Positions 7,544-36,490 of a stretch of 36,490 bases of DNA are shown here, piece after piece. Under the pieces are notes generated by a model. The model did not search any database and was not told where the DNA came from. It was given only the letters and a program-made list of their open reading frames with translations. Each line of letters starts with the position of its first letter. The stretch's first letter is position 1. The position numbers were made by a program, and so were the translations under genes. Source of the stretch: a virus (Duplodnaviria; Caudoviricetes); IMG/VR virus record IMGVR_UViG_3300046009_013981, positions 1 to 36,490 of that record, one strand, 5' to 3'.

Positions 7544-8785
7544 ATGGCAAACAAAAATGTAAATAGTTTTTTAACAACGTCTAATATAGATTTAACTACA
7601 GATTCATTATTATCAATAAAAAGTAATGAGTTAAAACAATTTAAAAGTAGCACCGCTGATCTTAGCGTTAATACAATTAATGCAACAAATATTGTTTATA
7701 CCAGTGGTAATCAAATTATAAGTGGGAATAAAACATTTCTTAACTCTGGCGTGTTTTCGCTTTCTGGAATAATACCACTCGCATTACCAAATAATCCTCT
7801 ATCAGTAGTTGGTAGTGGAAATAGCTATATTCAGCTTAATATCCAAAATAGAGCAACTGGCACTAATGCTACTGCAGATTTAGTTATTACAGCTAATAAT
7901 GGAACTGATACTAGTAATTATATTAATCTAGGTATAAATAATTCTGGATATAATGATCCAGCTTTTACCAATGGAACTGGTTTAGATGGCTATTTATTTA
8001 TAAATGGTGGAAATTTAGATATTGGAACTCAAACTCCAGGAAGAAATATAGAATTCCATGTTGGAGGAACGACTTTAGATAAAGTTGCAGTAATAATGAG
8101 TAGTTCTGGAGTACTTGTAACTGGAAGTATTTTTAATGATGAATTTGAATATATAAATAAAATACCATCCTTAACAGATTTAAATACTCCAACTCAGCCA
8201 TATCTTTGGTTTTCTAATGGTACTAATAGTGCAACGAGTTTATCTTGCACATCACAATTTTTATTTTTATCACCTTTTTGGGTATCTGCAAATTGCACAA
8301 TTATTTCTGGAGGATGTTTAGCTGGAACAAACGCCGCACCAATAGATGTTGATATTGGATTATATGGGGCAAATATAAATGGATTACCAGATTCAAGATT
8401 AGTTTATGGAAATCTAACAGCTGCTACTACAGTAGCTGGAGATATCTTAAGAGGTACAACTAGTTCTGTTTCTTTGCGTAGAGGTATGTATTGGGGAGCC
8501 GTTATGCCATTTGGAGCAAATGCAAATTTATATCAAACAGCAGTAAGCTCAATGACTACTAATACTAATACTAGAGCAACTGTTGGTGGATTAGATAGAT
8601 TGCTTCCTTTTTATAAAGACGTAACTGATGCTTATTTAATTACTACCGTCACAGCTGGCAGTAGATTACCTACTGCATTAGCAGGAACTAACAGAAAATT
8701 AGATTTTGTTACCGCAGGACAAGCTTCTACAGCTTATAGATCTAGAACAACTGCGCCATCTGTATTTTTTATACCTAGAATGTAA
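7544..8785 (+). CDS. Fibre / receptor-binding protein
   Basis: VYTSGNQIISGNKTF fibre repeat, a beta-rich middle region and a distinct C-terminal globular domain; followed by a chaperone-like gene. Confidence 0.6.
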   Translation: MANKNVNSFLTTSNIDLTTDSLLSIKSNELKQFKSSTADLSVNTINATNIVYTSGNQIISGNKTFLNSGVFSLSGIIPLALPNNPLSVVGSGNSYIQLNIQNRATGTNATADLVITANNGTDTSNYINLGINNSGYNDPAFTNGTGLDGYLFINGGNLDIGTQTPGRNIEFHVGGTTLDKVAVIMSSSGVLVTGSIFNDEFEYINKIPSLTDLNTPTQPYLWFSNGTNSATSLSCTSQFLFLSPFWVSANCTIISGGCLAGTNAAPIDVDIGLYGANINGLPDSRLVYGNLTAATTVAGDILRGTTSSVSLRRGMYWGAVMPFGANANLYQTAVSSMTTNTNTRATVGGLDRLLPFYKDVTDAYLITTVTAGSRLPTALAGTNRKLDFVTAGQASTAYRSRTTAPSVFFIPRM

Positions 8786-8791
8786 ATTTTT

Positions 8792-9082
8792 ATGAAAGAT
8801 AGAAGAATAATTGAAAATGGTAAGATAATAGATAATCGTGACTTAGAATCAACTAAGACCACAAAGATTAATGATTATAGAGAACAAACAAACTATAACA
8901 TATTAGTAATCGAAGGCATTGATCAGACTACTCAAATTAATGCTGCTTTGGGAATTTATGATGAAGAACGTTTATTAGAAATAAAATCAAAAATAGAATT
9001 TTGGAGAAATAGATTTTTAACTGCCAAAAGTAGAATCCTAACCGCAAATACTTTAGCTGAACTAGATGATATTTTATTATAA
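8792..9082 (+). CDS. Putative fibre assembly chaperone (DUF4376/Tfa-like)
   Basis: 96 aa directly after a fibre gene; ends in ILTANTLAELDDI, resembling the IxxAxTxxELxxI ending of phage fibre chaperones. Confidence 0.45.
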   Translation: MKDRRIIENGKIIDNRDLESTKTTKINDYREQTNYNILVIEGIDQTTQINAALGIYDEERLLEIKSKIEFWRNRFLTAKSRILTANTLAELDDILL

Positions 9083-9089
9083 TTAATAT

Positions 9090-9128
9090 TAGATTTTAAA
9101 AATATATATTATTATAATATAGTGTAAT
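9090..9128 (+). promoter_or_regulatory. Tandem promoters for lysis cassette: TAGATT-N17-TATAAT and GTGTAAT
   Basis: TAGATT 9090, TATAAT 9113, GTGTAAT 9122, ATG 9134. Confidence 0.6.
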
Positions 9129-9133
9129 CTATT

Positions 9134-9433
9134 ATGAAGACTATGCTATCTAAATTATTTGGCCCAAATTGGAGATCTTCGACATCGGGGATTATAACAG
9201 TCGTAGCCGTAGCAACAGCTTTTGCAATTCACGGAGATAATTCGTTAGTAGCATTTTTACCAGATAAAGCTGAAGAATATATAGTTGGAATTTCTAAACT
9301 AATCGCCGTTGTTAGTGGTATCATTTTTGCTCTTACTGTTAAAGATGCTGCTGTTACTGGTGGCAAAGTAGCTCAAACAAAAGAAGCCAAAAAAAGAATA
9401 AAGAAAGAAATAGGACATGGAGAAAATATATGA
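9134..9433 (+). CDS. Holin (two transmembrane segments)
   Basis: NWRSSTSG N-terminus, two hydrophobic helices, KD after the second helix and a basic C-terminus; first gene of the lysis cassette. Confidence 0.65.
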   Translation: MKTMLSKLFGPNWRSSTSGIITVVAVATAFAIHGDNSLVAFLPDKAEEYIVGISKLIAVVSGIIFALTVKDAAVTGGKVAQTKEAKKRIKKEIGHGENI

Positions 9434-10474: not shown

Positions 10475-11167
10475 ATGTTAAACGATAAATCTCTTAAACT
10501 CATTTTTGACTTTGAAGTTGGTGGCGGTGAAAATTATTATAATAAATTTTTAAAAAATCCAACATGGCCAGGAGAGCAAAGTGGAGTAACAATAGGGGTA
10601 GGTTATGATGTCGGATATGTAAATAAAACAGAATTTGCTAATGATTGGAAAGATCTCCCAAAAGAAACTTTTGATCGTTTATATAGAGTAGTTGGGGTAA
10701 AAGGATATCAAGCAAAAGAATTAGCTCGTAGATTAAAAGACATTACTATACCTTGGGAAATGTCAGTAAAAGTATTCATGAATAAAACCGTAAGGAAATT
10801 CTATGATCTCACTCGCGCAACTTTTCCTAATTTTGATAAACTACCAGAAGATGCAAAAGGTGGTTTAGTTAGTCTTGTATTTAATAGAGGAGCAGCCCTC
10901 GAAGGAGATCGTCGCCGCGAAATGAAAGTAATTCGTGATGTTATGGTGAGAACAGAGAATTTTGATGAAAGAACTTTATCTCAAATAGCTGATCAAATAA
11001 GAAAAATGAAAAGGATATGGATAGGTGGCGGTATAGAAAAAGGTATGAGTCGCAGAAGAGATGCAGAAGCTAAATTAGTAGAAGAAGCTTTAGCTAATGT
11101 TCTAGTTAATCCTAAAGATAATATATCGAAGACAGATAAGATAATCTCTGATAAATTTAAGTCATAA
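10475..11167 (+). CDS. Endolysin, lysozyme-fold (pesticin C-terminal-like/GH24-related muramidase)
   Basis: Catalytic-type FE near the N-terminus, SGVTIGVGYDVG motif, LVSLVFNRG, and C-terminal GMSRRRDAEA. Confidence 0.85.
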   Translation: MLNDKSLKLIFDFEVGGGENYYNKFLKNPTWPGEQSGVTIGVGYDVGYVNKTEFANDWKDLPKETFDRLYRVVGVKGYQAKELARRLKDITIPWEMSVKVFMNKTVRKFYDLTRATFPNFDKLPEDAKGGLVSLVFNRGAALEGDRRREMKVIRDVMVRTENFDERTLSQIADQIRKMKRIWIGGGIEKGMSRRRDAEAKLVEEALANVLVNPKDNISKTDKIISDKFKS

Positions 11168-11373: not shown

Positions 11374-11958
11374 ATGAATTACGATTCAGAACAATATGGC
11401 TTTGAGTTTATTAAAGCCAAAAGGCGTGGTCCAAAATCTTCTGCTCAGACACCAGCTAAACCAAGTGAACGCCGTAAAGGTTCTAGTCGCAATAAACCAG
11501 GAAGTGCTGGTACTAAAAGCGATAAAGCTATAGATTTTTCTAAAAAAGTAATTGAAGCTCTAAAAAATAAAGTAAAAGAGCATAATTCTAAATATAAAAA
11601 GAAAGTAACATTAGGTCAATTAAAGAAGGTATATCGTCGTGGCGCTGGCGCTTTTTCCTCTTCTCATAGACCAGGAAAAACTCGTGGTCAATGGGCAATG
11701 GCCAGAGTAAATATGTTTCTTAGAATGGTTAGCGGTAAACCAGTAAAAGATGCTTATCGTAAAGCGGATAGTGATATTGCTCGTGCCTCTGTAAATGATT
11801 ATACAATTGAAGCAAATTTTGAACCTAATGACGAAGATTTCAATCAAGCAGACGAAGATATTAAAAATTATAATCTAAATGATTTTGATTTTACTAGTGC
11901 CGATGAACTTTATCTTGATGATGAACAAGACGGCTTTCATTTTACATTCGAGGTTTAA
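11374..11958 (+). CDS. Basic protein with acidic tail; DUF5824-like core; possible internal head/DNA-binding protein
   Basis: K/R-rich N-terminal two thirds, LKKVYRRGAGAF..SHRPG.TRGQWAMARVN.F motif, D/E-rich C-terminus; immediately upstream of the prohead protease. Confidence 0.5.
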   Translation: MNYDSEQYGFEFIKAKRRGPKSSAQTPAKPSERRKGSSRNKPGSAGTKSDKAIDFSKKVIEALKNKVKEHNSKYKKKVTLGQLKKVYRRGAGAFSSSHRPGKTRGQWAMARVNMFLRMVSGKPVKDAYRKADSDIARASVNDYTIEANFEPNDEDFNQADEDIKNYNLNDFDFTSADELYLDDEQDGFHFTFEV

Positions 11959-23698: not shown

Positions 23699-24508
23699 AT
23701 GCAAAATAAAGAAATATTTTTTATATCTGGTCTACCACGATCTGGCTCGACTCTTCTTTGCAATATACTAGCTCAAAATCCAGATTTTTTTGTTACGAAG
23801 GCTACAAGCGGTTGTGTTGAAATATTATTTTCGGTTAGAAATCAATGGGATAGAATAGTTGAACATCAAGCAGAAGGTATAAATAGAGAACAGTTAAAAA
23901 ATGTCTTAGCCAGTATTTTACATAACTACTATCTTACAGATAAAAATATTGTATTTGATAAAGGTCGCGGATGGTTATCTATGATAGAAACTATCGAATT
24001 TGCTTTAAATAAAAAAGCTAAATTAATTTGTACAGTAAGGAATATAAATGAAATTCTTGCATCCTTTGAAGTATTATGGAGAAATACTACTGGTCAAAGT
24101 CAATGGAACATAGAGAAAGATAATTATGAGAAAAGCCTTACAATTAAAGGAAGATGCGAAATCTGGTCAGAAGCAGGGCAACCACTAGGTTCTGCTTATA
24201 ATAGACTAAAAGATGCAATTGATAGAGGACTGAAAGATAGATTATATTTGCTAGAATTTGATGATTTAACTCATAATCCAGAAGCAGCGCTAAGGAATAT
24301 TTATAATTTTATTGGATTAGAATATTATAAGCATGATTTTAATAATGTAATGCAGGTAACAAAAGAAGATGATGACAATGTTCATAGAATAAAAGATTTA
24401 CATACAATCCGTTCAATTGTTAGGCCTGTACAGTTAAAAGCTGAAAAGATACTAGGTAAGGATATTGCAAATGCTTATAAAGATTTTGAATTTTGGAGAA
24501 AGATTTAA
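23699..24508 (+). CDS. PAPS-dependent sulfotransferase
   Basis: 5'-PSB loop ISGLPRSGSTLL, 3'-PB motif VRN...LAS, and EFDDLTHNPE..LRNIYNFIG. Confidence 0.9.
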   Translation: MQNKEIFFISGLPRSGSTLLCNILAQNPDFFVTKATSGCVEILFSVRNQWDRIVEHQAEGINREQLKNVLASILHNYYLTDKNIVFDKGRGWLSMIETIEFALNKKAKLICTVRNINEILASFEVLWRNTTGQSQWNIEKDNYEKSLTIKGRCEIWSEAGQPLGSAYNRLKDAIDRGLKDRLYLLEFDDLTHNPEAALRNIYNFIGLEYYKHDFNNVMQVTKEDDDNVHRIKDLHTIRSIVRPVQLKAEKILGKDIANAYKDFEFWRKI

Positions 24509-24509
24509 T

Positions 24510-24538
24510 TAGATTAATAATCACACTTAAAATATAAT
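24510..24538 (+). promoter_or_regulatory. Sigma70-like promoter TAGATT-N17-TATAAT (DUF6734-like gene)
   Basis: TATAAT ends 6 nt before the TTG start. Confidence 0.55.
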
Positions 24539-24544
24539 TAATTA

Positions 24545-25405
24545 TTGAAGGCTTTATACACTTTTTGGTCAAAACCTATAAGAGAAAATCTCGCTCGTTG
24601 TAATAATGAGAGAAATTTCATTATGATGTTTGTATACTCTATGCTTTGGTCAGCTAAATGGTTTGATAAAGTAGAATTAAATACTGATAATTATGGACAT
24701 AATATATTCAAATTTTTTGAAACAGATAAAATCAGAATTAAAAATACGTTAAATAATTTTCAAAACCTTGATACTTATCTTTTTTGGGCATATCCTAAAA
24801 TATATTCTTTAACACTTCAAGATGAGCCTTTTGTACATTTAGATGGTGACATTTTTATATTTAGAAGATTAAGAGATAGCATATTTGAAGGAGATTTTGG
24901 TTTTCAAAATCTAGAAAAAACTTATTATGAAAGAACATATAGCGGATTAGTTAATTTTTGTGATGTATTCTTTAATCATAAACCCGAAGAATGGAATCCA
25001 AAGCTTAATGGTGCAATTAACTGTGGATTAATGTACTTTAAAGATCCTAGTTTAGCCAAAACGTTTCATGATAATTGTTATAAATATTTTATAGACTTAG
25101 ATTATTTTCTATTAGAAAAAATTAAGAAAGAATTAAAACAGATTATAAATATAAGATATATAACATATCCACTTCTTTTTGAACAGTATTATTTAAATTG
25201 TTTTGTTAATTCTTTTAAAGATAAGAAAGTAAATTATTTACTTTCGGATAATGAAATAGAAAAGGAAGAAAAGGGTGAGCCTTGTATAGAAGGATATATA
25301 CATCTAATAGAAGATAAAAATAATCCAGTTTATTTATCAAATATAGAAAGAAGATTCTCTTTAGAATTTCCATATCAATATCAGACTTTCTTAAGGCTAA
25401 AATGA
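24545..25405 (+). CDS. DUF6734-like / GT-A fold putative glycosyltransferase
   Basis: TTG start; YTFWSKP, WAYPKI...QDEPFVHLDGDIF (DxD), NCG, EQ and late His motifs resembling GT-A (GT8-like) enzymes. Confidence 0.6.
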   Translation: MKALYTFWSKPIRENLARCNNERNFIMMFVYSMLWSAKWFDKVELNTDNYGHNIFKFFETDKIRIKNTLNNFQNLDTYLFWAYPKIYSLTLQDEPFVHLDGDIFIFRRLRDSIFEGDFGFQNLEKTYYERTYSGLVNFCDVFFNHKPEEWNPKLNGAINCGLMYFKDPSLAKTFHDNCYKYFIDLDYFLLEKIKKELKQIINIRYITYPLLFEQYYLNCFVNSFKDKKVNYLLSDNEIEKEEKGEPCIEGYIHLIEDKNNPVYLSNIERRFSLEFPYQYQTFLRLK

Positions 25406-30774: not shown

Positions 30775-31046
30775 GAAGCAAGAAATTAAATTATAATTTT
30801 AGCATAGATCAAATAATAGAAGGTAATCTATCTGTGCAGAGTATACAGAAAAGTTTAAAAGATAATTTTGGTATATTAATGCCAAGTTTAACAACTTTTA
30901 AAAATCCTAATTTTATTAAAACATACCAAAGATGGGATGATAATAAAAAACATCAGTTTCTTAAAACTATTGGCGGAGTAGTTTATTATGGAAAAATTAA
31001 GAAATATCTAAATGATATAATCGAAAATAATGGAGAAAAAATATGA
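30771..31046 (+). CDS. Hypothetical protein
   Basis: ATGA overlaps at both ends. Confidence 0.55.
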   Translation: MRSKKLNYNFSIDQIIEGNLSVQSIQKSLKDNFGILMPSLTTFKNPNFIKTYQRWDDNKKHQFLKTIGGVVYYGKIKKYLNDIIENNGEKI

Positions 31047-31804
31047 AAACAATGTTTGAATTTGATATCTATCATGAAAAAGAAATAGAAAAAGTTGAGG
31101 TTTCTACTAATGAAAAAGGTGAAGAAGTTAAAGTAACTTCTAAAGTTAAAACTACTGCTCCAATTAAACTAGCTATTAAAAAACCAACCCGTAGTCTTTT
31201 TGATGAAGCTGAACTTTTCTATGGCGTAAGATTATCTGAAGGAATTAAAGCTGGTCTTTTAACTCGCGCATTATTGGCTAAACGTTTTAATAATGATGGT
31301 GGAGTTTTAAGCGAAGAAGAACAGAAGCAATATAATGATCTTTATAATGATTTTTTAAATCTACAAGTTGATTTTCAAAAATTATCCTTAAAACAAGAAT
31401 CCTTAAGAACAGAAGAAGAGAAGAGTGAGCTTTCTAGCATTATTGAAAAGATGACAGAAACAAGAGAAATGATCCAAAAATATGAGATGGCTCAAGCTAA
31501 CCTATTCGAACAAACTGCAGAAAATAGAGCTAGAAATAAGACTATTATGTGGTGGGTTCTTCAACTCAGTCTTATTGAAGGAGAAGATAAGAAATTGAAG
31601 GAACTCTTCGGAGAAGGATCTTATGAAGAGAAACTAAAGAAGTATGATGAAATTGAAGAATCAGAACTAGGTCTTGAAAAGATTGCTCTTCAAAAATTAT
31701 TATATTTAATTAGTTTTTGGTATATCGGTAGAGCTGCAAGCCAAGAAGAATTTTCTAAGCTTCTTGAAGCAATAAATAAAGATGGTAAAAAAGCGGAGAA
31801 GTAA
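31043..31804 (+). CDS. Putative tail assembly chaperone 1
   Basis: Acidic and helical; located between tail tube and TMP. Confidence 0.55.
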   Translation: MKTMFEFDIYHEKEIEKVEVSTNEKGEEVKVTSKVKTTAPIKLAIKKPTRSLFDEAELFYGVRLSEGIKAGLLTRALLAKRFNNDGGVLSEEEQKQYNDLYNDFLNLQVDFQKLSLKQESLRTEEEKSELSSIIEKMTETREMIQKYEMAQANLFEQTAENRARNKTIMWWVLQLSLIEGEDKKLKELFGEGSYEEKLKKYDEIEESELGLEKIALQKLLYLISFWYIGRAASQEEFSKLLEAINKDGKKAEK

Positions 31805-31807
31805 TGA

Positions 31808-32824
31808 TTGGAAACGATAGATAAAAATAAAATAAGATTACTATTTATTGATATACTCAAGGGCTATACAGAAGCGTATTATAAAAATAATAAAATCTAT
31901 TTTAAACATAATACAAGTTTTGATTCGGGTGATATAGACTCTAAAAGGCAGGATTTTATAAGAAGAGCTAAAAGTAATGGTTTGCCTAGTGAAGAAGAAA
32001 AAGAAAAATATCTAATCCTAGAAAAACTTTGGTCGAAAGAAAAGAATGACGACATAAAAAAGATAAGATCTTATATCTCTAATCTTAAAACAACAAAATC
32101 AAAATTATTTAGGAATGAAGAAATTGAATTTATAAATAAACAAATAAATGAAGAAAATTTAAAACTAATAGGACTAACATCTGAAAGAAAAGAGCTTTTA
32201 GGTTTTACTGTCGAGGATTATGCAAATAAAAAGGTTAATGAATATTACATGTTTAATTGTTTATTTAGGGATAAGTTTTTAAAAGAAAGATATTTTTCTG
32301 AGAATGAATTTGATGAACTAGAGAATAAAGATATATCGGAAATAATAGAGATATACAATGCTATAAATAGTAGTTTTTCTGAAAAGAATCTAAAAAAAAT
32401 AGCTTTATCATCTTTTTATCTTAGTTTATATAATATGTGTGAAGATAACCCATATTATCTATATGGAAAGCCAATAATACATCTTACTTTTTATCAAATT
32501 GAGGTATTCAGTTATTCAAGATACTTTAGAAATGCTCTTTCCGATGCTAAACACAAACCAGCTGATGAATTATATGAAGATCCAGAGAAGCTTATTGAAT
32601 GGCTTGAGAGTAGCAAGAATGCTGAAGAAGTACTCAATAAGAATAATATAAAAGATAACAAAAAGAGCGAAGGCGCAGTTGGAACATCTATTATAGGCGC
32701 TAAAAAGGAAGATCTTGCTAAGATTGGAGCAGATGAAAAAGGAGTAAGTCTACATGGAGAAGCCTTAAGAAAAGGTGGCACATTAAATATGCAAGATTTG
32801 ATGAAACTGCATGGTATTAAATAA
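31808..32824 (+). CDS. Putative tail assembly chaperone 2
   Basis: TTG start with GGAG 9 nt upstream; YGKPIIHLTFYQ and EDPEKLIEW motifs; directly upstream of TMP. Confidence 0.55.
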   Translation: METIDKNKIRLLFIDILKGYTEAYYKNNKIYFKHNTSFDSGDIDSKRQDFIRRAKSNGLPSEEEKEKYLILEKLWSKEKNDDIKKIRSYISNLKTTKSKLFRNEEIEFINKQINEENLKLIGLTSERKELLGFTVEDYANKKVNEYYMFNCLFRDKFLKERYFSENEFDELENKDISEIIEIYNAINSSFSEKNLKKIALSSFYLSLYNMCEDNPYYLYGKPIIHLTFYQIEVFSYSRYFRNALSDAKHKPADELYEDPEKLIEWLESSKNAEEVLNKNNIKDNKKSEGAVGTSIIGAKKEDLAKIGADEKGVSLHGEALRKGGTLNMQDLMKLHGIK

Positions 32825-32883: not shown

Positions 32884-35800
32884 ATGGCAAGGACTTCGGC
32901 TACAATTTCTGTAGGTGCAGATACAAGGCAACTTGAAAGAGATATTCAAAAAGCCTTGGGGCGTGATTTTAAATTTAAAGGATTAAATGAAAAAGCTTTT
33001 ACTCAGCCATTGGGTAGAATTACTGGCGCAGCCAATGAGTTTCAAAAATCATTAGATGCTTCTAATGCTCGTGTTATTGCATTCGGTGCGAGTGCAGGTC
33101 TAATCTATACAGTAGAGAGAGCATTTTCGGCATTAGTAAAAAGTACGATAGATGTTCAAAAATCATTAACAGATATTAATGTTATTTTAAATGTTAGTAA
33201 TAAAACTCTTCAAAATTTCGGAGGTCAATTATTTGATATTGCTAAAAATACCGCTCAATCTTTTGATACAGTCGCTCAAGCTGCAACAGAGTTTTCGCGT
33301 CAAGGCTTAGGTTTAGAAGAGACACTTAAGAGAACAAGAGACGCACTTGTTCTAACTCGTCTTAGTGGTCTAGATACTGTTAGCGCTGTAGAAGCACTAA
33401 CCGCTACAATTAACAGCTTTAGTAATGCAGCTTTAGATTCTACAACTATTATTAATAAATTAGCCAATGTTGACGCTGCATTTGCAGTCAGTTCAGCAGA
33501 CTTAGCAGAAGCTATTAAACGAGTTGGAAGTTCTGCTCAAGATGTTGGTGTAGATTTCGATCAATTGTTAGCAATTGTTACAAGCGTTCAGCAAACAACC
33601 GCTAGAGGTGGATCAGTTATTGGTAACTCCTTAAAGACTATTTTTACAAGAATACAAAGAACTGATACTCTTGATCAATTAGAAAGATTAGGAATTGAAG
33701 TAAGAACGCTAGAGGGTAATACTTTACCTGCAATTACTATTTTATCTAATCTTGCTAGTACATTTAATACCTTAAGTGATTCTCAAAGAGCGCAAGTAGC
33801 TGAAACTGTTGGCGGCGTATTTCAAATTAATATTTTAAGGGCAGCTTTAGGTGATTTACAAAAAGAATATTCTGTATATAATAATGCTTTAAGAACTGCT
33901 TCTGGAGCGACAGATGAAGCTATACAAAGAAATGAAGCTTTAAATCAAACTTTATCCGCATTAATTAATAAAACATTTGTTAATCTTACGAAAGTAGGAT
34001 CTGATATCGGTAGGATTTCATTTCAACCTACATTTGAAAATTTATTAAATACTTTAAATAAAGGACTAGAAAGTTTAGATGTAGAAGCTCAAACAGCTGG
34101 TGGTAAAATTGCTAGAGGAATTTTAGAAGGTATAGGCGCATTTATAAGTGGTCCAGGAGTAATTTTGGCTACTGCTGTTATTGGTAAATTAGTAATTAAT
34201 TTAGCTAAATTTGCCAGTCAATCATTACAAACGCTTTTAAATCTTAATACTCAAGCAGAACAGAGAGCGCAGATACAAACAAGAATAAATCAAGTCTTAG
34301 CTCAAGAACCAGCATTAGTAGCAGCAGTTTACAACAAACAGATTAGTGTTTTAGATGTTGAAAATAAAATATTAAATATTATTCGTCAGCAAACATTAGA
34401 AAGAGAAAGGGCTGCTGCGATTTCAACAACAATTGCAGGAGGTTTACTTGGAAAAGGTGTTACAACTAAGGGTGGTACATTAAGAACTAAAAGTTCTGGA
34501 TTTATACCTAATTTCGCAATGGGCGAAATCTTTGGTGCATTAGCTGGAGGATATAATCCAGGAAATATTCGAAGAATGAATATTCCTGGAGAAGGTCCTG
34601 TAATTTACAATAGTGCAGAAAAAGTAAAAAAATTTCCAGGATTAAGTCAACCAGCTATTATGCCTCCTGGCCAAAGCGTTGCCGGTAAAAATTATAAAGA
34701 CGCGTTTGGCTCAATATATGGATTTAATCCATATGCTTTTGATGGATTTATACCAAATTTTGCTCCACTTACACCACAAAGAGTTACTTCGATTACTAAT
34801 GAAATTCTAAAAGGAAATAGACCTAATTTAACAAATTATACCAAAGCTCAGAGAGATCAAATTGCAGCAGCATTAAAACAAAAAAGACAAGGTCAATTAT
34901 TAGGTGGAACAGTTGAATATAACGCAAGTAAACTTGGAGTTGTTGGAGTAACTGGTGGACGGGGTCCATTTAATCCAAGTACAACTTTTGCTCAACTTGG
35001 ATATCCAAATGATCCAAGATCAGTTAGATTTACTGGAATACAGGGAAGAACTATTGACGATTTAAGAAATAATGCACTTTCTCAAAAGGGAGAATTCTCA
35101 AGATCAATTAATTCTCTATTCGCAAATCCATTAACACAATTAGCTTCAACTATTTTTGGTAAAGTAAATCCCGATAAAAAATTTCTTAGTTTATTACAAT
35201 CTTCTGGGCGTGGAAATATTAATTTATTTCCTCCAGGAACAGAAGGTTCTATTTTTGAGGCGGCAGTTAATTTAGCTACTAAAAAAGGTACAGGAGCATT
35301 AGAAAAAGCTTTTAATCAAGACTTAGCCCAAAAACCTTTTGATTTTGAAGAATATGGTTCTCCTTCTCAACAATTTAATAAAACTTTTGGATTCTTTCCA
35401 TTTGTAACAAAAGCAGATGCGAAGAGAACAGTTGATACAAATTCTGCAAGAGAAATTATACAAAAAGCTTATCAAGTTGGTTCTGGCGTAGCTGGTCTAC
35501 CAAAACCAGTAACTAGAAAATTAGCTTCGCAAGGTTTTATTCCTAATTTTGCAGCTCTAAGTGAGTCTATTGACAGAGAACTAGCAGCCGGAGTATCTCC
35601 ATCTAAAATAAGAATAGGCAGAGATAAAAGATTAACCTCTGCTTATAATCCATTAGGTCTTGGAATATATAATACAAAAGATGAACCTCTTGGTTTAAGT
35701 CAAGGAGTATCAAGATACAGTGGTTCAAGGGCTAAAAGCGCAGGAGCTTCTGATGGATTTATTCCTAACTTTGTTCTTCCAGCTATAGCTGCGGGAGGAG

Positions 35801-36489
35801 CTTCAATTTTAGGATCTCAATTAGTAAGATCTGTCCTTAGTATTGCGATATATACGCTTATTGATAAAGTTGGTCAAAGAATTGTTGATTCTATAGAAGA
35901 CGAAAGAGGTAAAGCTATAGCTCAAGCTGGAGTTGGGGCATTATCATTTGGAGCAAGTGCAGCAGCTTTTGGTGGTGGAAAAAAAGCATTTTTAAGTAGT
36001 ACAGCAATAGGTTTGGGCTATGGTTTAACTGGGGCATTTGACACATTAACTAAAACTCAAAAAGAAGCAATTGTAGAAGCTGAGAAAAATAAAGATATTT
36101 TAGAGCAATTCTCTTCTCAACTTTCAAATTATAATATAGCACTAGAAAAACTAGAATCTTCTACTTTAAATTCAGCAGATAGAGCTAAAGTACTAGCAGA
36201 ATCAAATGAATCTCTTTCTAAGATATTAGAGGTAGCTCCAGATGAATACAGAAAAAATCTAATTAGCGCAATAGAAGGTGGAAATATACAAAATATTAGA
36301 GATGAACTAGCTAGGTTACAAACTGTTATCCAAGCTCAAACTGCTAATTCAGAAAGTCTAGCAAAAATTATTGCAATTAGTTCAGATCAGGCAATCTCAA
36401 AAGAAGAAATAAAAGGATTAACTTCTGCATTATTAGGCTTTAGAACAAAAACTGGAGAAACTTTAAGAGCCACGTTTTTAGCTGATCCA
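32884..36489 (+). CDS. Tail tape measure protein (3'-truncated, >1200 aa; not in ORF track)
   Basis: MARTSATISVGADTRQLE...; TP901-like core (EFSRQGLG, KLANVDAAFAVSSADLAEAI, TARGGSVIGNSLKTIFTR); no stop codon seen before the window end. Confidence 0.9.
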   Translation, partial: MARTSATISVGADTRQLERDIQKALGRDFKFKGLNEKAFTQPLGRITGAANEFQKSLDASNARVIAFGASAGLIYTVERAFSALVKSTIDVQKSLTDINVILNVSNKTLQNFGGQLFDIAKNTAQSFDTVAQAATEFSRQGLGLEETLKRTRDALVLTRLSGLDTVSAVEALTATINSFSNAALDSTTIINKLANVDAAFAVSSADLAEAIKRVGSSAQDVGVDFDQLLAIVTSVQQTTARGGSVIGNSLKTIFTRIQRTDTLDQLERLGIEVRTLEGNTLPAITILSNLASTFNTLSDSQRAQVAETVGGVFQINILRAALGDLQKEYSVYNNALRTASGATDEAIQRNEALNQTLSALINKTFVNLTKVGSDIGRISFQPTFENLLNTLNKGLESLDVEAQTAGGKIARGILEGIGAFISGPGVILATAVIGKLVINLAKFASQSLQTLLNLNTQAEQRAQIQTRINQVLAQEPALVAAVYNKQISVLDVENKILNIIRQQTLERERAAAISTTIAGGLLGKGVTTKGGTLRTKSSGFIPNFAMGEIFGALAGGYNPGNIRRMNIPGEGPVIYNSAEKVKKFPGLSQPAIMPPGQSVAGKNYKDAFGSIYGFNPYAFDGFIPNFAPLTPQRVTSITNEILKGNRPNLTNYTKAQRDQIAAALKQKRQGQLLGGTVEYNASKLGVVGVTGGRGPFNPSTTFAQLGYPNDPRSVRFTGIQGRTIDDLRNNALSQKGEFSRSINSLFANPLTQLASTIFGKVNPDKKFLSLLQSSGRGNINLFPPGTEGSIFEAAVNLATKKGTGALEKAFNQDLAQKPFDFEEYGSPSQQFNKTFGFFPFVTKADAKRTVDTNSAREIIQKAYQVGSGVAGLPKPVTRKLASQGFIPNFAALSESIDRELAAGVSPSKIRIGRDKRLTSAYNPLGLGIYNTKDEPLGLSQGVSRYSGSRAKSAGASDGFIPNFVLPAIAAGGASILGSQLVRSVLSIAIYTLIDKVGQRIVDSIEDERGKAIAQAGVGALSFGASAAAFGGGKKAFLSSTAIGLGYGLTGAFDTLTKTQKEAIVEAEKNKDILEQFSSQLSNYNIALEKLESSTLNSADRAKVLAESNESLSKILEVAPDEYRKNLISAIEGGNIQNIRDELARLQTVIQAQTANSESLAKIIAISSDQAISKEEIKGLTSALLGFRTKTGETLRATFLADP
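34498..35772 (+). repeat. Four GFIPNF peptide motifs within TMP
   Basis: At 34498, 34744, 35533 and 35755 (KSSGFIPNFA, AFDGFIPNFA, ASQGFIPNFA, ASDGFIPNFV), encoded with different synonymous codons. Confidence 0.95.
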
Positions 36490-36490
36490 T

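Follow-up and report, generated by a model that had tools for sequence, protein, structure and literature searches.

Introduction

Tape measure proteins (TMPs) occupy the lumen of the phage tail and, at infection, leave it ahead of the DNA (PMC10038345, PMC12617516, PMC10713586). In the available text of the same sources, the T5 TMP and its lambda counterpart are described as being cut during assembly, with the lambda product gpH* forming a trans-envelope channel, and they are given as the only two TMPs shown to be cleaved in particles, the lambda site being unmapped and its catalyst unknown (PMC12617516). In T5, pb2 is cut past a hydrophobic stretch after R1127 into pb2* and pb2C, so that the ruler and a muralytic domain come apart (PMC10038345); in lambda, the cut in gpH falls within a glycine-rich region and is made while the tail is being assembled, and the protein is then ejected as the channel (PMC12617516). 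Several TMPs embed peptidoglycan hydrolases (PMC12617516), and the accessible part of another source mentions TMPs solely as conduits (PMC7824862). TMPs are usually seen as rulers and channel formers, at times with a cell-wall hydrolase.

For a second group, the polyvalent proteins that phages and conjugative elements encode, a proposal is that they enter the cell together with the DNA and are then taken apart by proteolysis (Iyer et al. 2017, PMC5512222). Each is a long single chain, and the conflict enzymes in it vary (ART, GNAT, kinase, ParB-like and zincin peptidase); their release is ascribed to an in-chain MPTase domain, a zincin that is frequent and not strictly required (PMC5512222). 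The term 'tape measure' occurs 0 times in the main text of that paper as available (PMC5512222).

In this study, we analysed a window of 36,490 nt, the whole stretch of DNA of a caudoviricete record of IMG/VR (IMGVR_UViG_3300046009_013981), whose TMP is a motif-indexed array of cassettes. The system would work like a polyvalent protein and belongs to the PF10145 TMPs, and it is a real and widespread feature. It is unlike the polyvalent proteins in that the carrier is a TMP and a single fixed peptide fences every unit, and unlike lambda gpH, for which neither an enzymatic activity nor swappable cassettes are described in the text available (PMC12617516). The peptide, GFIPNF, was not found in a relevant context in the literature searched, and neither was a GFIPNF-fenced cassette architecture of TMPs (the search covered main texts, for the most part of papers outside subscription).

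The tape measure gene and its neighbourhood

The gene (32884..36490, + strand, as are all features of the protein given below) contributes the 5' 1202 codons and is open at its 3' end at the end of the window; it is missing from the ORF track because the reading frame from 32884 runs past that end. The remainder is encoded on locus L001, which overlaps the window by 1614 nt with 2 mismatches, and the full-length protein has 1905 aa. A PhageMin_Tail (PF10145) region covers aa 120-311 (33241..33816; Pfam, E 2.2e-29) and scores 103 bits against a Pfam cut-off of 33.2, which places the protein in PF10145, and in a PHROG search of the part encoded in the window 17 families were matched, 16 of them TMP families. 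The length of the protein and its tail-gene context are those of a TMP, the neighbours having been judged by eye to be chaperones and tail-tip genes, and by its sequence the ORF from 32884 is a TP901-type TMP. With other TP901-type TMPs it shares the N-terminal PhageMin_Tail region, hydrophobic segments in mid-protein and embedded globular domains; it is unlike them in that the cargo of its family, where nameable, is not directed at the cell wall, and is fenced and exchanged as cassettes.

On L001, a convergent set of genes on the - strand 3' of the TMP gene (L001:3734-10942) looks by eye like the tail tip genes of lambda (M, L, K, I, J). It includes, at 8485-9210, a 241-aa gene with what appear by eye to be JAB- and NlpC-like motifs, presumably a candidate TMP protease. 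Upstream of the TMP gene, window positions 31043-31804 and 31808-32824 probably encode two tail assembly chaperones, which share one frame and have TAA TGA between them; readthrough of these stops was rejected, because the frame relation is not kept across 72 contexts. Further upstream, a sulfotransferase (PF13469, E 1e-18) and a DUF6734 protein are encoded amid structural genes at 23699-25405 and possibly serve in modification of the virion or its fibres, while 10475-11167 and 11374-11958 encode a pesticin-like lysozyme (PF16754) and a DUF5824 protein (Pfam, PHROG).

Four GFIPNF motifs and the segments between them

The sequence-only reading, made from the letters of the window without database searches, had described four GFIPNF motifs with differing codons, and a sequence scan confirmed them at aa 539-544 (motif 1, 34498..34515), 621-626 (motif 2, 34744..34761), 884-889 (motif 3, 35533..35550) and 958-963 (motif 4, 35755..35772). 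Their spacing is 82, 263 and 74 aa, the chance expectation is 3.7e-5 per protein, and their codon strings differ at synonymous positions; no fifth copy is present in any of the six frames of the window. In the non-TMP reading frames of the loci at hand the strict motif occurs 0 times in 343,244 residues, so that among these it is specific to TMPs. Codon use within the motif is near background at four of six positions and skewed at Pro (CCT 72% vs 36%) and Gly (GGA 65% vs 46%), and because of this skew the data are also compatible with a role at the DNA level.

Between the motifs lie module A (aa 545-620, 34516..34743), predicted as a helix, four short strands and a helix, with invariant YNxAE and AIxPP; the exchangeable cargo domain (aa 627-883, 34762..35532), which is basic and predicted to be globular alpha/beta (pLDDT 88.5); and module B (aa 890-957, 35551..35754), with invariant NPxGxG and NTxDEP. 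The structure models thus predict globular segments between the motifs and not ordinary TMP helices. Motifs 2-4, and motif 1 in part, fall in low-confidence (<50) linkers of the model of the block, and for this reason GFIPNF behaves, as modelled, like an exposed linear signal.

A family of cassette-bearing tape measure proteins

Block and module searches retrieved 187 viral loci and 120 proteins, which together with the window gave 191 distinct blocks, and the order module A, cargo, module B could be labelled in 130 of these. Among representatives clustered at 50% identity, 1517 matched the window TMP at E<=1e-30, and the best 150 of the 1517 were taken as a distant set. At least one motif is present in 148 of them and 5-18 motifs in 33 (range 0-18, counted with a loose pattern); module A is found in 138, module B in 118 and the cargo family of the window in 106, and relatives accrete up to 17 fenced segments. 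The expectation that TMPs of this kind differ in how many domains the motifs enclose, and in which ones, and yet retain modules A and B is borne out across these 150 distant TMPs. Among cultured phages the block had no match (0 of 50,697 phage records). The giant TMPs P0256, P0157 and P0220 have 4,493-5,354 aa and 12-18 motifs; P0157 and P0256 have two copies of module B each, and P0157 also a tandemly duplicated 109-aa cassette.

A Pfam scan of 34 of the 150 representatives, picked for their many cassettes, gave a cargo family above the cut-off in seven, namely SNase in three, ART-PolyVal in two, GNAT in one and PcfJ in one, and none above the cut-off in the other 27. Mixed conflict enzymes, as in the polyvalent proteins, are thus present at the level of the family (7/34), ART-PolyVal in two relatives being a domain of those very proteins, whereas the protein of the window itself carries a single cargo. 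Every Pfam-named cargo is confined to a single fenced segment; those that hold SNase or ART, at 183-199 aa, are of single-domain size. Fencing of one unit per enzyme is easier to explain if each enzyme must be freed. A PHROG endonuclease match was obtained in P0148 (14 proteins scanned). In all, 149 inter-motif segments, from 61 of the 150 proteins, match none of our four profiles and form 94 clusters, some of the segments being diverged A or B modules; the family is in this way a source of mostly unnamed segment clusters. In pattern screens, the 149 segments yielded four kinase, seven HExxH and one ParB match, against 0, 0.15 and 0.05 in shuffles. HExxH, which would mark the zincin peptidase to which release of polyvalent proteins is ascribed, is absent from the block of the window.

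Exchange of the slot between the modules

A comparison of the window with a close relative, L028, shows that the slot is exchangeable. Identity is 93% in the N-terminal flank, 87% in module A, 24% in the cargo and 90% in module B, and at the DNA level identity breaks off with the last codon of motif 2 and is regained just before motif 3, so that these two motifs form the left and right edges of the exchanged segment. Over 198 blocks and 1639 pairs prefiltered by k-mers, 440 have flanks that agree at 90% or more of positions, and these fall into two groups, the cargo being below 30% identical in 76 and at least 50% in 358, with six pairs at 30-50%; conversely, the cargo is 70% identical or more in 664 pairs, and the flanks of 144 of these are below 70%. 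We also built trees from 28 rows, hand-picked so as to include exchange-type pairs, and the cargo tree breaks up six groupings that are starred in the flank tree. Because the identities are bimodal and the flank groupings broken, the divergence of the cargo is due to exchange, as judged from these sequences, and not merely to fast drift. Cargo domains of one allele class evolve under purifying selection (pN 0.12-0.27 vs pS 0.35-0.56 in 5/5 pairs, uncorrected).

The edges at the motifs do not locate the crossover, as a crossover at any point of the conserved modules would leave identical edges. The sequence beyond motif 4 also diverges sharply among relatives: the next 150 aa (window 35773 onward) are 21-53% identical in L002, P0005 and L028 and module B 87-90%, and since the module stays conserved while what follows diverges, motif 4 reads as a further edge of exchange.

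A likeness to the T5 cut site and its meaning

The closest mapped site is that of T5 pb2, where the context of the cut (arrow) is SFVPR↓AEGG and contains the sole F-x-P of the 1219-aa protein. In 13 T5-like sequences (five taken from 30 loci and eight from 40 rows, one unrelated cyanophage row being excluded), F-x-P-R stands at the cut position in 12 and GFIPR↓AEGG in two (L216 and L219). In the family studied here, [RKFY][AS]x(1-2) precedes 556 of 1032 G[FYLH][IV]P cores, the figure for other glycines being 8.7%; among the same cores an exact RAEG is found in six and a run-on into FAx(x)GG in 22, and in divergent members NF is often missing where the upstream half is retained. Of the sites of the window, 4/4 have F-I-P and 2/4 the upstream [RKFY][AS]x(1-2)G, with an order and register that differ from T5, and the register of a candidate cut is ambiguous (before G, after N or after F). 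We consider GFIPNF likely to be a T5-type processing site, and infer that the extended form, [RKFY][AS]x(1-2)G-F-I-P-N-F-A, would be a tandem member of a TMP family of AxGG motifs that includes the T5 site. The likeness is a short motif recognized post hoc and as such a resemblance, not a demonstration. Like T5 pb2, a TMP cut at these sites would lose an enzymatic domain past a hydrophobic stretch; unlike T5, which has one C-terminal site with Arg at P1 and demonstrated cleavage (PMC10038345), this family has four and up to 18 internal sites and is known from sequence only.

HHalign gave E 0.77 for module A and E 0.49 for module B against the module that follows the T5 site (the T5 profile being shallow, Neff 2.4), the GExGxE module of T5 pb2C was not found by HHalign after GFIPNF, and neither A nor B has a profile match to the AxGG module at the C-terminus of the family's own TMPs. 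Two copies of that module (AxGG...DxVPAML..GE) are present at the TMP C-terminus on L001, at ORF aa ~930-990 and ~1100-1155. As the last 700 aa contain [RK][AS]xGG in 153 of 248 full TMPs and the T5-like P(x)[RK]AxGG in 22, these copies and counts suggest that the family TMP probably has a T5-type site of its own at its C-terminus. In one T5-like TMP end, that of Aeromonas phage Akh-2 (L226, MK318083 95066-95518), there are in-frame stops, one right after F-K-P-R, which may be sequencing errors or recoding.

The block had been described as lying between hydrophobic segments, and it does: a hydrophobic helix at aa 409-445 (34108..34219, max KD 1.92) lies ~129 aa ahead of module A, and on its other side a hydrophobic region covers aa 958-1030 (35755..35974, max KD 1.63), with Gly/Ala-rich stretches at aa 962-1030 (35767..35974). 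Within the block of the window no membrane segment is predicted, and among 261 related blocks a hydrophobic helix is found before the block in 230, inside it in two and after it (KD19 >1.6) in 119. Because the conserved helix precedes the block and none lies inside, the block would form a soluble loop beyond a membrane.

We lean towards the reading that the window TMP is a processed cargo polyprotein, whose cargo is freed at the motifs and delivered to the host when the ruler is ejected. On ejection of the TMP the block would travel through the envelope as a soluble loop, and a protease acting in trans, probably that of the maturation of the TMP C-terminus, would cut every copy of GFIPNF, either in assembly or after entry; the JAB/NlpC-like gene product of L001 would be one candidate. 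Modules A and B, which stay fixed, would serve as chaperones or for docking. Recombination within the conserved modules and the motif codons would bring in new cargo, which would be retained only when fenced on both sides. The freed enzymes would then hit nucleic acids or proteins of the host or a rival prior to phage transcription. If true, this would be an unrecognised route for effectors against host or competitor that act before transcription, and since the motif is repeated hundreds of times and resembles the T5 site, it would allow residue-level predictions on how TMPs are cut. In a more ambitious form, which we put forward tentatively and as rather less likely to hold, the TMP would be a programmable injection magazine in a large family of uncultured phages, its GFIPNF-fenced enzymes being cut at a T5-type site by one conserved activity and released ahead of the genome, and GFIPNF and the C-terminal AxGG would be one cleavage code that also explains the maturation of the T5 and lambda TMPs.

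The same observations could be read without any cut. The motif might be a signal for binding or folding, recognized by a tail assembly chaperone, the wall of the tube or the motif of neighbouring TMP chains, and at the same time a joint for recombination, in which case the cargo would stay on the membrane-inserted TMP and act where the DNA enters. The hydrophobic anchor ahead of the block in 230/261 relatives would suit such a tether, as would the skewed Pro and Gly codons of the motif, the fencing of the fixed modules A and B along with the cargo, and the lack of the NF half at several first sites (e.g. P0249, P0245 and P0180), and the cut site itself is a candidate, proposed by likeness of sequence. 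However, both halves of the motif resemble the mapped T5 site, and enzymes that are unrelated and differ in their likely targets have each a fence of their own, so that we regard a permanently tethered cargo as unlikely, though as the most serious of the alternatives.

The cargo of the window

In 47 inserts that are 11-62% identical, G162, E166, D194, K221 and K235 (insert positions) are invariant; in the window these are G788, E792, D820, K847 (in D-x-K) and K861 of a nuclease-like core at 35245..35466. An E...D...(D/E)xK pattern is present in 218 of 282 family matches, against 1.25 in shuffles. We take this to be the order of the PD-(D/E)xK nucleases. The cargo further resembles that superfamily in that, in the model, E belongs to a helix and DxK to a strand; it is unlike it in that no strand is predicted where the conserved Asp lies, a helical insert separates this Asp from DxK, and neither sequence nor fold could be matched. 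The cargo had no Pfam, PDB or BFVD match, in fold searches that barely probed the core, and PADLOC matched 1/47 cargo members, weakly (E 0.03). By eye, some cassettes of relatives look more canonically nuclease-like, and the cargo profile matches these at E 0.16, which is not significant. We therefore regard it as roughly an even call whether the cargo is a divergent PD-(D/E)xK-type nuclease, and hold with greater confidence that it is an enzyme of some kind. As a nuclease it would attack DNA of the host or a competitor before phage gene expression, and this is the least certain step of the proposed mechanism.

A nuclease within an essential gene could instead be a selfish element, that is, a homing-type endonuclease inserted in frame, tolerated through excision at the motifs and spreading by cutting rival alleles in mixed infection. 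This would account for the nuclease-like pattern in 218/282 matches and for the bimodal exchange of alleles, and it might be thought to explain why the slot is never empty, the shortest A-B block of the 261 having at least 298 aa; yet the missing empty allele also means that no homing target is evident, the same slot takes cargo that is not a nuclease (ART, GNAT, kinase, HExxH), and the cargo of the window has no nuclease fold match. We think it improbable that homing explains the slot.

Modules A and B

Delivery of processed cargo, the reading we prefer, leaves the cutting to a protease in trans, whereas the sequence-only reading had raised the idea that the paired small modules are autoprocessing units and mutually homologous. 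Similarity of the 82- and 74-aa segments is found with the motifs included (BLASTP E 8e-5; HHalign 84.9%, E 6e-6) and falls to a weak signal once they are removed (HHalign 8.5%, E 0.004), and iterated profiles of A and B never matched each other; the modules may be anciently related. Neither has a Pfam or PHROG match, and no peptidase fold was matched, the modules having been folded only within the 443-aa block, so that the fold searches barely probed them. The residues at the motif junctions are G and F, and not the C, S or T expected of inteins and other self-processing proteins. On these grounds, autoprocessing by the modules is not supported.

Asparagine-lyase-type chemistry offers a model for cleavage at the motif Asn, and A and B might pair around the cargo like intein halves around their endonuclease, with their invariant acidic residues (E10/E41 in A; E16/D50/E51 in B) driving the reaction: A and B do bracket the block in most relatives, Asn is present in 97-98% of motif matches (the search patterns favoured N/S at that position) and the T5 register (F-x-P-P1) would put it at P1; but we consider this improbable, given modules with weak homology beyond the motifs and no match to a peptidase family or fold, motifs that are disordered and undocked in the monomer model (block pTM 0.50), up to 18 motifs alongside few modules, and three proteins in which A has no following B.

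In these three proteins (P0163, P0254 and P0262), module A is followed neither by B nor by a recognisable cargo, and in P0217 modules A and B flank a short unrelated segment; the four may be reduced or ancestral states. Two contigs in a Halobacteriovorax MAG (L230 and L231), which may be mis-binned phage contigs, encode TMPs of 3,200-3,300 aa with six fenced segments of 262, 314, 331, 343, 166 and 89 aa.
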